Assembly (NCBI GenBank): GCA_016218255.1
Contig: JACREN010000007.1
Location: 1 to 62,971, forward strand
DNA length: 62,971 nucleotides
Direction of reading: 5' to 3'
Origin: Candidatus Gottesmanbacteria bacterium
Lineage (GTDB): Bacteria; Patescibacteriota; Microgenomatia; UBA10105; UBA927
A model generated the notes under the pieces. The model was not told where the DNA came from. It did not search any database and worked only from the letters and a program-made list of their open reading frames with translations. This document shows, one piece after another, positions 8,878-46,026 of this stretch. The position numbers and the translations under genes are program-made. Each line of letters starts with the position of its first letter. Position 1 is the stretch's first letter.

Positions 8878-11552
8878 TGGCACTTCTTCCACTTTTTCCC
8901 GGATCCGCACCAGCATAGATCGTTGCGTCCTAATTTCTGTTTGGACTTCAATTCATGATGACTTACAGAGGATGCAGGCGCATTCGTCCGCATACGTTTT
9001 ACTGCTTGAGCAATCGGTGTTATCGGAAGCGCTGACGATTGCGAGCTGACATCTGTGGGTGCCATCTGAACCTGCACTTTAAAAATCCGGTGGACGATCT
9101 CGCTGTCAATCCCGACCATGAGCCGCTCAAACATAGAAAACGCCTCGTTTTTATACTCTACGAGCGGATCCCGCTGACCATATCCGCGAAGCCCTATGCC
9201 CTCGCGGAGGTCATCGATCGCATCCAAATGATCCATCCAGAGACTGTCAATCACAGAAAGACTAACCCACCGTTCAACCTGTCCCATTACTTCCGACGTC
9301 ACCTGTTTTTCTCTCGTCTCATACATATCTACCGAAAGTTTGACTAAAAAATCAATTAGATCGCCAGATGAATGCATCTGTTCCAATTGGACAAAAAGCT
9401 GCTTACCAGATGCTTCATCAAACGGAATAATGGACACAAATTCATTGACAATCTTTTCTCTGTCAAAAACGCTGTCCTTTTCCGATGCATACATGGAAAC
9501 GACATTGGATATTTCTGTCGAAATGTTTGCAAGAATTGTTTCTTTCTGCCGCTCCCCTTCCAATATCTTTCTTCGTTTTTTGTAAACAATTTCGCGCTGT
9601 CTCGTAAGCACATCATCATACTCAACCAAATGTTTACGGGAATCAAAATGAAAACCTTCCACTTTTACCTGCGCCTGTTGTATAGCCCGAGAAACCATAG
9701 CATGCTCCAGTGGAACATCTTCGGGAAGTTTAAAAACAGTCATAAGCCTTGCTACCTGATCGCCGCCGAAAAGCCGCATGATATCATCTTCCAGAGATAC
9801 GAAAAATCTACTGGTACCCGGATCTCCCTGGCGACCAGACCGGCCGCGCAATTGATTGTCTATCCGGCGGCTTTCATGCCGCTCCGTACCGATCACATGA
9901 ATTCCTCCTGCTGCCACTACCTCATCATGACTCTTCTGCCACTGCTTCATGTATTGCTCCCATTCTTTTTCATTTTCCATTTCCCATTTTTCTTTCTTGG
10001 ATCCGCCCAATATAATATCGACGCCTCTTCCTGCCATGTTTGTAGCAACCGTCACCGCACCCTTTTTCCCTGCCTCTGCGATAATCATGGCTTCTTTCAA
10101 ATGATTTTTGGCGTTGAGAATCTGGTGTGGAATGCCTTTACGCGTCAGATAATCACCGATGATTTCATTTTTCTCAATCGACGTGGTACCCACCAGCACC
10201 GGCTGACCGCGCTTATAGCAGTCGATAATATCCGCCACCACTGCCGCGTATTTTGCCCTGGGCGTTTTATACACGCTGTCGGCAAAGTCCTTGCGCACCA
10301 TAGGCCGATGCGTCGGTATAATAACCACATCCAAGTTATAAATCTTTTTGAATTCTTCTGCTTCCGTCGAAGCAGTACCCGTCATGCCTGCAAGCTTCTG
10401 ATACATGCGGAAATAATTCTGCAACGAAACAGTTGCCAAAGTTTTACTTTCCTGCTGTATTGCGACACCCTCCTTTGCCTCAATAGCCTGATGGATACCC
10501 TCACTAAAGCGTCGCCCAGTGAGAAGTCTACCGGTAAACTCATCGACAATCACGACCTGATTATCTTTTACGATGTAATCCTTATCTCTATGAAATAATG
10601 CTTTTGCCTTGAGCGCCGCTTCTATATGATGCACGGTCTCAAAATTAGTTTCGTAAATATTTCCTAATCCGAGCATCTTTTCGATCTTCAGTATTCCGTG
10701 ATCGGTCAAGTGAGCAGTACGTAATTTTTCATCTATCACAAAATCCATTCCAGCCCCTAGCCGTTCAACCAGTTTCGCATAGTCATAATACGCATGCGTG
10801 GCTTCTGTATCCGGAGCCGAGATAATGTGCGGCGTCCGCGCCTCATCTATGAGAATCGAATCAACCTCATCAATTACGGCAAAATAGTACTCGCGCTGAA
10901 CAAGCTGAGACATATCCGACGCCATGTTGTCTCGCAGATAATCAAATCCAAATTCAGAATTAATGCCATAAGTAATATCTGCACCATAAGCTTCTTTCCG
11001 TGATACCGGCCGCAGATGCCGAAGTCTCCAGTCCGTCGCGGTCTCATCAATATATTCAGTATCATACAAAAATGACTGATCGCTGATAATCGCTGAAACG
11101 GAAACACCGAGTAAATGGTATATCTGTCCCATCCATCCTGCATCACGACGCGCCAAGTAATCGTTTACCGTCACAAGGTGAACACCGCGTCCCGTGAGTG
11201 CATTGAGATAAAGCGCTGGGGTAGCCGAAAGCGTTTTTCCTTCTCCTGTTTTCTGTTCTGCTATTTTCCCTCTATGAAGCGCCACAGCAGCTATTAGCTG
11301 TTCATCAAAATGTCGCTCGCCGATAGTACGAGACGCTGCCTCACGAACCAACGCGAATGCTTCGGGAAGCAAATCATCAAGAATTGATCCGGATTTCAAC
11401 CGCGCCTTCAACTCTGCGGTTTTTTTCACAAAATCAGCGTCCTTGAGCTTTCGCATAGAACTTTCAACACCAGCGATACTAACCACAATCGAACGGATTC
11501 TATTGATTTCTTTTTCGTTGCTGTCAAGAAGTCTACCGAGGAATTTGAGCAT
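8859..11552 (-). CDS. secA: Preprotein translocase ATPase SecA
   Basis: KTGEGKT, DEVDSILIDEARTP, ATNMAGRGVDI and SEC-C motif CWCGSGKKWKKCH. Confidence 0.99.
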   Translation of the reverse strand: MLKFLGRLLDSNEKEINRIRSIVVSIAGVESSMRKLKDADFVKKTAELKARLKSGSILDDLLPEAFALVREAASRTIGERHFDEQLIAAVALHRGKIAEQKTGEGKTLSATPALYLNALTGRGVHLVTVNDYLARRDAGWMGQIYHLLGVSVSAIISDQSFLYDTEYIDETATDWRLRHLRPVSRKEAYGADITYGINSEFGFDYLRDNMASDMSQLVQREYYFAVIDEVDSILIDEARTPHIISAPDTEATHAYYDYAKLVERLGAGMDFVIDEKLRTAHLTDHGILKIEKMLGLGNIYETNFETVHHIEAALKAKALFHRDKDYIVKDNQVVIVDEFTGRLLTGRRFSEGIHQAIEAKEGVAIQQESKTLATVSLQNYFRMYQKLAGMTGTASTEAEEFKKIYNLDVVIIPTHRPMVRKDFADSVYKTPRAKYAAVVADIIDCYKRGQPVLVGTTSIEKNEIIGDYLTRKGIPHQILNAKNHLKEAMIIAEAGKKGAVTVATNMAGRGVDIILGGSKKEKWEMENEKEWEQYMKQWQKSHDEVVAAGGIHVIGTERHESRRIDNQLRGRSGRQGDPGTSRFFVSLEDDIMRLFGGDQVARLMTVFKLPEDVPLEHAMVSRAIQQAQVKVEGFHFDSRKHLVEYDDVLTRQREIVYKKRRKILEGERQKETILANISTEISNVVSMYASEKDSVFDREKIVNEFVSIIPFDEASGKQLFVQLEQMHSSGDLIDFLVKLSVDMYETREKQVTSEVMGQVERWVSLSVIDSLWMDHLDAIDDLREGIGLRGYGQRDPLVEYKNEAFSMFERLMVGIDSEIVHRIFKVQVQMAPTDVSSQSSALPITPIAQAVKRMRTNAPASSVSHHELKSKQKLGRNDLCWCGSGKKWKKCHYPATA

Positions 11553-36945: not shown

Positions 36946-36974
36946 TAGCAACACGAACGACACAAGTTGCTTAG

Positions 36975-38366
36975 TTACTTAGCAAGAGATAAACGAATCA
37001 AGGTGTCTTCTTTTCCTAAAATCTCTAATGATTCCAAGAGAGGCGGGCCTACGGTTTTACCGGTGATAGCAACACGAAGCTCCATAAATACATCTTTCGC
37101 CTTCATTCCCGCTTTCTCCGTCTCCAGTCGAATTGCCGCTTCCATCGCATCATGGTTCCACTCAGTAGATTCGAGCGCTTTGCTGGCAATTCCCACTAAT
37201 TTTTTGTCAACTGGCCGTTCAAACTCCTCAGGCCGAATAAAGAAAAATTCTGCCAATGACCGGTATTCAGCAAGCGTCTTCATTCGTTCGATAACCAGCG
37301 GAATTGTCCGCTCGATTAAATTTTGATCATACTTTCCATTATAAAAATCAAAAATTTGAACTTTGAGTTTTGAACTTTGAGTTTTCCGTAGATATTCTCC
37401 GTTCATCCAGCGCAATTTCTCAATATCAAATATCGGCGCCGTTGTCTGTATAGCCAAAAGGTTAAACGCGCCAACCATCTCCAAAACTGAAAAAATTTCC
37501 TTCCCATCCGGATGCATCCATGCCATAGTCGCCAGATAATTCAGTATCGCTTCCGGTAAAAATCCTTTATTTATGTAATCTCCTACCCAGACGGGATTTT
37601 TGCGTTTCGATAATTTACTTTTATCCGGATTACGAAGTAAGGGCATGTGAGCAAACAGCGGAGGCTTCCACCCAAAAAATTGGTACAGAAGTACATGCTT
37701 GGGGGTGGAAGAAATCCATTCCTCGCCGCGAATAATATGGGAGATTTTCATTAGATGATCATCCACAACGACACCAAGATGATACGTCGGATACCCGTCA
37801 GATTTCAAAAGCACCTGATCGTCAATGAGTTTATTTTCAAACGAAATATCACCGCGTATCTCATCGTGAAACACCGTGACACCCTCATCGGGAACTCTCA
37901 ATCGGATCACACATGGTTCTTTTTGAGCATTGAGTTTTGAGCTTTGAGTTTTGAGTTCGCGACACCTCCCGTCATACATCGGTGCCTCGTGATTTGCCTC
38001 CTGATCTTTCCGCATGGCAGCAAGCCTGTCAGATGTACAGAAGCAATAATATGCATGACCTTTTTCAATTAATTCTTCAGCGTATTTTTTATATACTTCC
38101 AACCGTTCCGACTGGCGGTAAGGGTTAAACGGGCCGCCTATATCCGGACCTTCTGCGTGCCTGAGACCCAGCCATGCAAGCGACGCTAAGATTCGCTCTT
38201 CACTTCCTTCCACAAATCTGGTTTTATCGGTGTCTTCGATGCGGATGACAAATTCTCCGCCGTATTTTTTGGCAAAAACATAATTTATGAGCGCGGTATA
38301 GGCATTGCCGATATGCAGGTCCTGACCCGTTGGAGATGGAGCAATGCGCGTTCGAACTGTATTCAT
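36975..38366 (-). CDS. gltX: Glutamate--tRNA ligase
   Basis: RIAPSPTG, HIGN, RIEDTD and KLSKR motifs; start set to MNTVR. Confidence 0.97.
   Translation of the reverse strand: MNTVRTRIAPSPTGQDLHIGNAYTALINYVFAKKYGGEFVIRIEDTDKTRFVEGSEERILASLAWLGLRHAEGPDIGGPFNPYRQSERLEVYKKYAEELIEKGHAYYCFCTSDRLAAMRKDQEANHEAPMYDGRCRELKTQSSKLNAQKEPCVIRLRVPDEGVTVFHDEIRGDISFENKLIDDQVLLKSDGYPTYHLGVVVDDHLMKISHIIRGEEWISSTPKHVLLYQFFGWKPPLFAHMPLLRNPDKSKLSKRKNPVWVGDYINKGFLPEAILNYLATMAWMHPDGKEIFSVLEMVGAFNLLAIQTTAPIFDIEKLRWMNGEYLRKTQSSKLKVQIFDFYNGKYDQNLIERTIPLVIERMKTLAEYRSLAEFFFIRPEEFERPVDKKLVGIASKALESTEWNHDAMEAAIRLETEKAGMKAKDVFMELRVAITGKTVGPPLLESLEILGKEDTLIRLSLAK
37355..37382. repeat. 7-bp tandem repeat x4 (TTTGAAC/TTTGAGT) in gltX
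   Basis: tttgaac tttgagt tttgaac tttgagt; encodes KTQSSKLKVQ. Confidence 0.85.
37922..37956. repeat. 7-bp tandem repeat x5 (consensus TTTGAGY) in gltX
   Basis: tttgagc attgagt tttgagc tttgagt tttgagt; encodes ELKTQSSKLNAQ. Confidence 0.85.
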
Positions 38367-42264: not shown

Positions 42265-42483
42265 ATGAGCGAAGCTTTGCCCGATGCACATTGACAAGTT
42301 AATTTTTGGGTGGAAGAAGAGGATGTCACATCTGACCTGGCGCCTTCCTCTTCCACCCAAATCTTTGGGAGGAAAAATTCAAAAGGAGAAAAGAAAAAAA
42401 TGAACAAAGGACCCCCTAAAAAAATTAAATAATAATACAATCAGAAGGAAATTTGAAAATCCAAAAAACTCAAGAGGACAAAA

Positions 42484-44655: not shown

Positions 44656-46026
44656 ATGATAACGCTTCCGGCTGCAGCTCAATCAATTATCGATTCGCTC
44701 CAAAAAGCTGGATTTGAAGGTTACGCTGTGGGGGGATCCGTGCGTGACACCCTAATGAACCGCCCGACTCATGGATGGGATTTTACCACCAACGCGACAC
44801 CGGAAGACATACTTAAACTATTTCCCGACAGTTTTTATGATAATCAATTTGGAACCGTGGGAGTAAAAATCTACACGCTGTCAACTGATATTGAAGATAT
44901 TTATGAAATCACCACCTACCGCAGTGAAAAAGGGTACAAGGATCACCGTCACCCTGACCATATTCTATGGGGCAAAACACTCGAAGATGACCTATCGCGC
45001 AGGGATTTTACAATAAACGCCATCGCATCGGACGGAAAAACGCTCATTGATCCATATGAGGGACAAAAAGACTTGAAGGAAAAAATTATCCGCACTGTGG
45101 GTGATCCGGACCTGCGTTTTTCAGAGGATTCTTTGCGCATGATGCGGGCAGTTCGAATAGCTAGCGAGTTGGGATTTATGATAGATGAAACAACATCAAG
45201 TGCGATATTAACCAATGCAGAACTTTTGAAAAGAATCTCTGCTGAGCGCATTCGCGATGAACTCATGCGACTTCTGAAAAGTGAATATTCTTCAGACGGC
45301 ATTTTGCTACTCAAAAATACAGGACTGCTCAAGTACATTCTCCCGGAGCTCGAGGATACATTCGGTGTTGCGCAAAAAAGTCCGAAGCGCCACCACATCT
45401 ATGACGTCGGCACCCACTCGGTATTAGCACTCAAACATTGTCCTTCAACCGATCCCCTCGTACGTCTGGCGACGCTCCTTCATGATATTGGCAAAACGAA
45501 AACATTCCACAAAGATGAATCAGAGCTCATTACCTTCTACAACCACGAGGTCGTCAGTGCCCGTCTGGCAAAAGCAGTTGCCCAACGCCTCCGATTATCC
45601 AGGAACCAATCGGATAAACTTATTACACTCGTGCGCTGGCATCAGTTTAGCGTCGATGAGCGTCAAACAGACAGCGCATTACGACGCTTCATACGACGGG
45701 TAGGTCGCGATAATCTTTCCGACATGCTGGCACTCCGCATCGGAGACCGTTTGGGCGGAGGCGCACGAGAAACCTCATGGAGATTGGAACTATATAAGAA
45801 ACGCCTGCAGGACGTTCAAAAACAACCCTTTTCTGTGACCGATCTAAAAATTAACGGACATGACATAATGCGCGAGCTTGACTGCAGACCCGGGCCAATC
45901 GTAGGAAAAATACTCAATCAATTATTCGCAGAAATCGAAACCGGAATTTTATCTAATGAACGCGAGGCGCTTCTTATTCGTCTTAAGCAACTAAGCAACG
46001 AAGTAACTGGGCTTGCTGCTAACTAA
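44656..46026 (+). CDS. cca: CCA-adding tRNA nucleotidyltransferase with HD domain
   Basis: VGGSVRD, RRDFTINA, EDSLRMMRA, ERIRDEL and LLHDIGK motifs. Confidence 0.92.
   Translation: MITLPAAAQSIIDSLQKAGFEGYAVGGSVRDTLMNRPTHGWDFTTNATPEDILKLFPDSFYDNQFGTVGVKIYTLSTDIEDIYEITTYRSEKGYKDHRHPDHILWGKTLEDDLSRRDFTINAIASDGKTLIDPYEGQKDLKEKIIRTVGDPDLRFSEDSLRMMRAVRIASELGFMIDETTSSAILTNAELLKRISAERIRDELMRLLKSEYSSDGILLLKNTGLLKYILPELEDTFGVAQKSPKRHHIYDVGTHSVLALKHCPSTDPLVRLATLLHDIGKTKTFHKDESELITFYNHEVVSARLAKAVAQRLRLSRNQSDKLITLVRWHQFSVDERQTDSALRRFIRRVGRDNLSDMLALRIGDRLGGGARETSWRLELYKKRLQDVQKQPFSVTDLKINGHDIMRELDCRPGPIVGKILNQLFAEIETGILSNEREALLIRLKQLSNEVTGLAAN

Follow-up and report, generated by a model that had tools for sequence, protein, structure and literature searches.

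Introduction

To our knowledge, although tandem heptamer repeats were recognised in bacteria decades ago, neither a mechanism nor a role for them has gained acceptance. In the heptamer arrays of Nostoc punctiforme, Elhai et al. reportedly described (Genome Research, in 2008) nested small dispersed repeats (SDR), which are GC-rich mini-inserts of 20–40 nt, and the Rickettsia palindromic elements (RPE) that Ogata et al. are said to have described in 2000 are selfish elements of 100–150 bp that sit in-frame in protein-coding genes and add residues to their products. Heptanucleotide simple sequence repeats (SSRs) are over-represented in many bacteria, as illustrated by the GGGAATC and GGGGAYT repeats of Xanthomonas and Nostoc, and a connection with the polymerase footprint has been suggested (PMC4692102). 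That paper cites a 2007 survey of prokaryotic SSRs and a report of short tandemly repeated repetitive (STRR) heptamers in Calothrix, and it places the Xanthomonas and Nostoc repeats mainly in intergenic DNA, with under-representation in coding regions. Here we analyse two heptamer arrays in gltX, the glutamyl-tRNA synthetase (GluRS) gene carried on a 62,971 nt stretch of DNA (contig JACREN010000007.1; 'the window') from Candidatus Gottesmanbacteria bacterium, an ultra-small groundwater bacterium that belongs to the Candidate Phyla Radiation (CPR). The arrays have taken the place of the DNA encoding two alpha-helical stretches of the enzyme, base for base and with the length unchanged.

With the Xanthomonas, Nostoc and Calothrix heptamers these arrays and their genomic counterparts share few-copy 7-nt tandem units, the presence of several families per genome, a strong excess over other periods, frequent inverted pairs capable of forming hairpins and fast change between close relatives, and the gltX arrays have the head-to-tail 7-nt units in about three or more copies (3.7 and 5.3) that define a heptanucleotide SSR or STRR. 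Unlike the Xanthomonas and Nostoc repeats, which are mainly intergenic, 61 of 70 arrays in the source genome lie within open reading frames (ORFs), in-frame and in essential genes; the gltX arrays replace conserved helices at constant length and at the same sites in many lineages; and the units are A/T-rich with a TCA core rather than G-rich, so that no G-quadruplex is expected. The likeness to Nostoc SDR lies in GC-rich mini-inserts within the gltX arrays of four relatives, whereas the arrays of the window's own gltX hold no nested insert, a GC-rich piece within an argS array is single-copy, and the context is coding and in-frame. As with RPE, repeats are tolerated in essential genes of reduced genomes and only in frame-compatible, stop-free forms, but the gltX arrays are direct heptamers of 31–37 nt that add no residues and have neither a palindrome nor shared defined ends; composite hairpin inserts in a transketolase-like gene of the same genome come nearer to RPE. 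A full-text literature search on heptamer or tandem repeats in combination with CPR found no published description of such arrays in CPR/Patescibacteria, and the phenomenon, a variant of the known heptanucleotide repeats, appears to be undescribed for these organisms. What sets these arrays apart from the known heptamers is the in-frame position in essential genes, the length-neutral replacement of helices and the recurrence at the same sites with different units.

Results

Two in-frame heptamer arrays in a single-copy gltX

An earlier note on this DNA had described two in-frame TTTGARY arrays in gltX, both encoding KTQSSKL, and this description is borne out by Tandem Repeats Finder (TRF), translation and shuffled sequences. 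On the coding strand the unit of both arrays is CTCAAAR/TTCAAAA (Table 1). Site A, in the peptide context ...YDGRCR-ELKTQSSKLNAQK-EPCVIRL, lies just after the invariant Cys135 of the CxC...C segment, and site B lies further downstream in the protein, in the context ...MNGEYLR-KTQSSKLKVQ-IFDFY. The note had put its 'first site' just after a CFC...CR segment; a site does adjoin that segment, but it is the protein-upstream one, with the higher coordinates (37921–37957). Of the five TTTGARY copies that the note had counted at 37922–37956, one reads ATTGAGT, and the note's copy numbers of four and five become 4.4 and 5.3 units, neither of them a multiple of three. TRF describes 37921–37957 as 5.3 copies of period 7 or as 2.5 copies of period 14 with a 95% match, and 37355–37385 as 3.7 copies of period 7 or as 2.2 copies of period 14 with a 100% match, which is a perfect 14-nt dimer. 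The string TTTGARYTTTGARY (two adjacent TTTGARY units, with at most one mismatch) has eight matches in the window, seven of which fall at the two gltX sites; shuffled sequences averaged 1.0 matches, with 4 at most, and 0 of 100 shuffles reached 8. The observation is therefore real and far beyond chance.

Table 1. Coordinates of gltX, its two arrays and further in-frame CTCAAAR arrays. Coordinates without a prefix are those of the window; C-numbers are contigs of the source genome.
Feature	Coordinates	Strand	Basis
gltX, glutamyl-tRNA synthetase (P0001), 463 aa	36975..38366	minus	ORF + translation, phmmer, AlphaFold2 model
Site A: heptamer array, 5.3 units, coding strand AACTCAAAACTCAAAGCTCAAAACTCAATGCTCAAAA, peptide ELKTQSSKLNAQK, P0001 residues 137-149	37921..37957	minus	Tandem Repeats Finder + translation
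Site B: heptamer array, 4.4 units, coding strand AAAACTCAAAGTTCAAAACTCAAAGTTCAAA, peptide KTQSSKLKVQ, P0001 residues 328-337	37355..37385	minus	Tandem Repeats Finder + translation
CTCAAAR in-frame, DNA ligase	C12:40727-40768		
CTCAAAR in-frame, LeuRS	C18:1573-1604		
CTCAAAR in-frame, ArgRS	C40:6440-6461		

The product of the host gene, P0001, matches Thermus thermophilus GluRS (1J09) over residues 4–461 (phmmer, E = 2.7e-129) and contains the class I motifs HIGN (residues 18–21) and KLSKR (251–255), aligned to HVGT and KISKR of the Thermus enzyme. On this full-length similarity and both signature motifs it is assigned from sequence as GluRS, a class I GlxRS. The nearest gltX relatives are assigned to Candidatus Gottesmanbacteria, Microgenomates or Patescibacteria. 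Residues C108, C110 and C135 of the CxC...C segment are invariant in 43 orthologues, and an AlphaFold2 model built with 43 sequences has a mean predicted local distance difference test score (pLDDT) of 94.4. The source genome (G000 below; G001 is a second genome of the same genus, and L-numbers denote gltX of relatives) is a metagenome-assembled genome of 1.0 Mb in 55 contigs, with 45.8% G+C and 92% completeness, in the whole of which gltX has one match and is thus single-copy. A low-complexity ORF of 119 aa runs antisense in gltX (window 36967–37326, plus strand); it is most likely a shadow ORF and no gene.

Replacement of helical segments at unchanged length

Segment lengths were measured between conserved anchors in 91 distinct aligned GltX orthologues, from C-R/K to V-I-R for site A and between the R of NGEYLR and the F of DF for site B. 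All 16 orthologues that have an array at site B, and most of those that have none, show a distance of 15 aa there; for site A the mode is 19 aa with or without arrays, the window's gltX having 18 aa. Site B aligns one-to-one with EVLSLEEVAERV of T. thermophilus GluRS 1J09, and site A aligns to NIPPEEAEERARRG of the same enzyme with one residue fewer. Because these lengths equal those of array-free orthologues and of the Thermus enzyme, the arrays must have replaced sequence rather than added it. The AlphaFold2 model puts both arrays in alpha-helices: site A in helix 140–149 (pLDDT ~84), and site B at the end of helix 315–328 and into helix 331–341 (pLDDT 96), which places it at the start of the C-terminal helical (anticodon-binding) part of the enzyme, in its first helix. 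The proposal in the earlier note of a spreading repeat process was right in spirit, but the lineage-specific insertions in surface loops that it envisaged are contradicted by both the alignment and the model.

The same comparison was extended to other genes with ~590 kb of G001, which gave 463 orthologue pairs at ~75% identity. Among the 25 strong array events that could be aligned between G000 and G001, the partner has no array in 21; the lengths differ by 0 aa in eight events, by 1 aa in seven (15 of 25 within one residue) and by 2–9 aa in ten. The commonest outcome is replacement without a change in length.

Recurrence and turnover of the arrays among orthologues

When a period-7 score was slid along the 91 gltX genes, 25 of the 26 strong windows fell into two 10-residue bins, around residues 140 and 330 of P0001, with arrays counted at site A in 14 and at site B in 11 of the 91 orthologues. 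The units found there are diverse: CTCAAAR, AGCAAAC, AAATCTC, AATTCAA, AAGAATT, AAGTCAA, ACAGCAG, AATTACG, AACCTAC and GTTAGGG at site A, and AAAACTC, AGCTATC, AAATATC, AAATTTC, AATTCAG, AGTCAAA and AAATCTC at site B. Many of these orthologue arrays are perfect (21/21 period-7 matches), those of AGCAAAC, AAATCTC, AACCTAC, AAGTCAA, AGCTATC and AAATATC among them, and it is because relatives hold perfect arrays of unrelated units at the same sites that we regard the arrays as repeats at the level of DNA and not as a protein motif. The peptides differ fully among relatives (KTQSSKL, ANSKQQT, YQLSAIS, IKNYELR, NLQPTTY) with the DNA periodicity kept, and where relatives share the peptide (L039, L085, L003 and L072) they share its heptamer codons as well, rather than encoding it with unrelated ones. 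In array-free orthologues the best windows score 4–12/21, which looks like background, and no latent 7-nt periodicity was found in them.

A tree was built without the two array segments, and changes were counted on it by parsimony. For site A, with 19 arrays, the count is at least 10 changes (shuffled labels: mean 17.5, minimum 14); for site B, with 16, it is at least 12 (shuffled labels: mean 15, range 12–16). The sister of the window's gltX, L031, comes from the same genus (branch support 99; 82% amino acid identity over the kept alignment columns) and has AGCAAAC at site A and a non-periodic, ancestral-type QTTDDTLVHLI at site B (compare KTDEELISIL in L039). Since site B of L031 is of the ancestral type, the window's site B array is younger than the split from L031; its unit and register equal those of the L003 array. 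The arrays thus turn over between species of one genus. A common unit at the two sites, as in the window, is not a rule, for only about two of ten relatives with arrays at both sites have similar units there; because TCAAAAN-type units are among the commonest families in G000, the coincidence in the window needs no link between the sites.

GC-rich mini-inserts are nested in the gltX arrays of L096, L085, L046 and L076. The same ~39-nt piece, SPARNATQSVAGG, is present at both gltX sites of L096, and a 30-nt double hairpin, CCCGCGAAGCGGGATCCCGCTCCGCGGGAC, lies within site A of L085. L031 carries a GC-rich insert of 54 nt (18 codons) just after site B, at ~2000–2060.

A genome-wide population of heptamer arrays

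G000 contains 50 period-7 arrays with a TRF score of at least 36, against 0.8 expected from order-4 Markov shuffles, and 20 with a score of at least 45, against 0. At the lower threshold there are 2 arrays of period 6 and 24 of period 8. The heptamers of gltX are part of this genome-wide family, as the earlier note had supposed, and the family is over-represented. After merging, 61 of 70 arrays lie within ORFs of at least 120 aa. Hosts confirmed by Pfam are ATP-dependent DNA ligase, ArgRS, RecF, TGT, RseP, CysRS and a PPAT/DUF359 fusion; LeuRS and IleRS were recognised by eye. CTCAAAR itself recurs in-frame in the ligase, LeuRS and ArgRS (Table 1), two CTCAAAR units also occur in one intergenic stretch, and intergenic inverted pairs or hairpins of arrays exist as well. 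The typical length is uniform, with a median of 31 nt in both G000 and G001 and of 29–34 nt in three other genomes.

Array density among the sampled genomes is 6.1 per 100 kb in G000, 10 in G004, 25 in G008 and 8 in G032, and 0–2 in nine other relatives. Four of the five sampled genomes with gltX arrays are array-rich; in the fifth, G023, none was seen in the 20 kb sampled. Array richness is a genome-level trait. Further afield, CTCAAAR triplets occur in 45 of 401 Patescibacteria genomes; a reversed-pattern control for this count is uninformative, since CTCAAAA read backwards is its own rotation.

Several further repeats were seen. Period-8 arrays are likewise in excess in G000 (24 with a score of at least 36, against 1.4 expected), with examples in the window at 45984–46008 (TAAGCAAC) and, with a lower score of 34, at 42381–42411 (AAAAGGAA). 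A TTTTCCA array (coding AAAATGG) at 9966–9990 of the window lies in-frame in a 901-aa ORF and encodes EKWEMENEK. Outside the window, a transketolase-like ORF (C37:15781-17761, minus strand) contains two in-frame composite hairpin inserts, each consisting of a heptamer arm, a loop and an inverted arm, which encode MNHESRIMNTEKKQTIHNSVFSIQYS and VNHESGMMNTEKKQTIHHSQFSIQYS and in which the would-be in-frame TGA is AGA or GGA; the G001 orthologue has different repeats in both slots (RQRVSVS...DAFDAMT) plus a third. Similar composites are found at C17:10883-10958 and C12:44631-44705. Where the DALR domain of argS begins (C40:6370-6480, minus strand), a TCAAAAT array, a GC-rich piece of 22 nt, CCCTTCGAAGCTCAGGACAGGC, and a GCATTTA array make up a composite that is in-frame; no second copy of the GC-rich piece was found in G000.

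Selection on orientation and register, population variation and MutS

A tandem heptamer gives the same cyclic 7-residue peptide in any frame, so that frame does not matter; orientation does. Within the ORFs of G000 the TCA strand is the coding strand. Where arrays do lie in the TGA orientation in ORFs, as in the arms of hairpin inserts, the would-be in-frame TGA has become AGA, GGA or CGA (peptides MNHESRIMN, VNHESGMMN and QNYELRIMN). These altered triplets are direct evidence of a selective filter for open frames. At site B the register is constant across different units: codon 5 is TCA, and codon 8, a conserved hydrophobic position, is NTC (Leu, Ile, Phe or Val). The ancestral-type segments already have AAA-AC at codons 2–3 (L039) and a Leu codon followed by A at codons 8–9 (L039, L041), that is, the AAAACTC register, and so may have offered local seeds.

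Both gltX arrays are free of indels in contigs from two independent groundwater studies (2020 and 2025), although contigs hide rare variants. Logan contigs were examined for three runs with gltX. In run X1 the summed word depth over site A (37915–37961) is ~8500, against 9.6 in the rest of gltX, and this ~900-fold difference indicates that the site A string is abundant in other organisms of the groundwater community.

G000 has no MutS domain V (PF00488), and the domain is missing from 35 of 41 genomes in a sample of its family, order and class. Each of the five genomes in which MutS is matched over its full length is array-poor, and arrays at the gltX sites are found in 0 of 5 genomes with MutS against 12 of 25 without (p ~0.06, from a hand count). 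Absence of MutS may therefore be permissive for array formation, though not sufficient.

Discussion

The reading that we favour, by a modest balance of the evidence, is that the gltX arrays are members of a genome-wide population of ~31-nt heptamer arrays produced by a lineage-specific, length-preserving writing process at the DNA level and filtered by selection. The most likely source would be a transient 7-nt out-of-register misalignment, or template switching, during replication or repair, in which a unit is copied onto its neighbour and the strands then realign. A short local seed could thereby spread and be homogenised with neither a net insertion nor a net deletion, and the setting would be a genome devoid of MutS. 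Selection would then keep, within genes, only the stop-free orientation (TCA coding, never TGA), only the register that puts a hydrophobic NTC codon at a buried helix position, and only those lengths that preserve frame and helix. The gltX arrays themselves probably have no function of their own and are tolerated, with quick turnover.

Several observations weigh against this account. The misalignment step is deduced, and no intermediates were seen. Genome-specific repertoires of units are ill-explained by pure local seeding and suggest a trans-acting template or bias, and simple slippage does not lead one to expect a characteristic array length of ~31 nt, as seen in five genomes. The ten G000/G001 events with shifts of 2–9 aa show that true insertions and deletions occur too. 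Residues 340–350 and 380–410 of GluRS are as variable as the two sites in the 91 orthologues and never carry arrays; tolerance alone is accordingly rejected as the cause of the hot spots. Finally, G007, G009, G015 and G031 have neither MutS nor arrays, which shows that absence of MutS does not suffice, and loss of mismatch repair as the sole cause is rejected on the same four genomes.

The strongest competitor is a copy-and-paste process, either a dispersed tiny element or ectopic templated conversion from other arrays, by which gltX was overwritten twice by a CTCAAAR donor. We consider it unlikely, if to be taken seriously. It draws on the genome-specific repertoires: units resemble one another more within either G000 or G001 than across the two genomes (a value matched by 0 of 300 permutations, or by 2 of 300 when one array was taken per kb), and 40 of 50 G000 units contain TCA/TGA (23% expected, p ~2e-17), against only 12 of 33 in G001. 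The uniform array size in five genomes, the occurrence of CTCAAAR triplets across 45 of 401 Patescibacteria genomes, the ~900-fold word depth over site A, the recurrence of arm–loop–arm composites in several genes and the GC-rich mini-inserts nested in relatives' arrays, with an identical one at both L096 sites, all point in the same direction, as does a variant string, AAAACTCAAAG(C/T)TCAAAACTCAAAGTT, that occurs at site B of the window and at site A of L039, with a close relative at site A of the window. Yet in a blastn-short search of the sites against the whole of G000, array–array matches stop at the array edges, with no element ends, target duplications or unique core. A longer dispersed element is rejected, the matches of the sites plus flanks ending at the array borders, and the gltX sites have no inverted partner in the same search. 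The nested GC-rich piece of argS is single-copy; same-unit arrays would match each other whatever their origin, and arrays of different units are too dissimilar for ordinary recombination. The fixed register and length at site B can be produced by selection as well.

It is improbable that each site received one ancient array in the ancestor of the clade, with the units diverging since by point mutation and homogenisation (concerted evolution) and the array-free genes being decayed or outside the clade. Arrays at site A are phylogenetically clustered (10 changes, against 17.5 in shuffles, minimum 14), nearly all of the 14-sequence clade around L001 have arrays at one or both sites, and site B units are linked by one or two substitutions (CTCAAAA, CTCAAAT, TTCAAAT, ATCAAAT, GTCAAAA) with the TCA register fixed. 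However, L031, which already appears nested among array-bearing relatives, and the clade member L041 have an ancestral-type, non-periodic site B, which in L041 equals that of the distant-clade L048 at most bases of the segment; the 12 changes at site B equal the lowest value of the shuffles (12–16); and same-site arrays also occur in distant lineages, namely L072, L073, L075 and two Uhrbacteria-like ones, L108 and L109. Compared in register, the site A units of L001 and L031 agree at only 3 of 7 positions, and most arrays, when set against G001 genome-wide, occur in just one of the two genomes. One ancient origin followed by concerted evolution accounts for some of what is seen in the L001 clade; it accounts for neither L031 and L041 nor the distant lineages.

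It is very unlikely that the arrays are functional, be it by switching gltX through phase variation, as an mRNA signal for translation or regulation, or by giving a GluRS helix an adaptive Lys/Gln/Ser-rich surface, even though the same two positions recur in many lineages. Heptanucleotide repeats are reported to act as phase-variation switches in Haemophilus (PMC2651432, PMC8262952), and the gltX arrays share with such Haemophilus and Neisseria contingency repeats a period that is not a multiple of three within a reading frame. They differ from such repeats in having 4–5 units, in lying in the middle of an enzyme rather than at the 5' end of a gene for a surface protein or a restriction-modification system, and in being identical in contigs of independent samples; and in place of the dispensable host gene of a contingency locus there is the sole gltX of the genome. 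Since gltX is essential and single-copy, a change of one unit would be lethal rather than a switch, and contigs of two independent samples, which would hide rare variants, show none that differ in length. The peptide differs completely between relatives with the DNA periodicity kept, the same arrays occur in dozens of unrelated genes and in intergenic hairpins, and many orthologues have no array. Chance low complexity or an assembly artefact, which the short, A-rich arrays (31 and 37 nt) might bring to mind, is practically negligible given 0 of 100 shuffles, 50 arrays against 0.8 genome-wide, the same sequence in contigs of independent runs and the presence of the phenomenon in dozens of assemblies from different projects and assemblers.

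A bolder reading can be put forward speculatively, with the odds against it. Some CPR/Patescibacteria might possess a dedicated, length-preserving overwriting in 7-nt register of ~31-nt tracts in permissive helices of essential genes, for which the genome-own units would imply a template or factor that acts in trans rather than plain polymerase slippage. Sites such as the two helices of GluRS would then be long-lived slots, the content of which is replaced repeatedly.

There is a practical issue here for annotation and for alignment-based phylogeny of CPR marker genes, and because repeat strings common to several organisms inflate depth, depth-based binning can be confused. For the biology of these organisms, gltX and other CPR housekeeping genes offer a natural read-out in which overwritten sequence can be compared with the ancestral state one base at a time. 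Should the process amount only to slippage tolerated without mismatch repair, it still shows how much arbitrary sequence two GluRS helices accept. If it is templated or register-specific, it would add a new way for protein sequences to change in reduced genomes, and a dedicated 7-nt overwriting, if true, would represent a novel kind of turnover for coding sequence.

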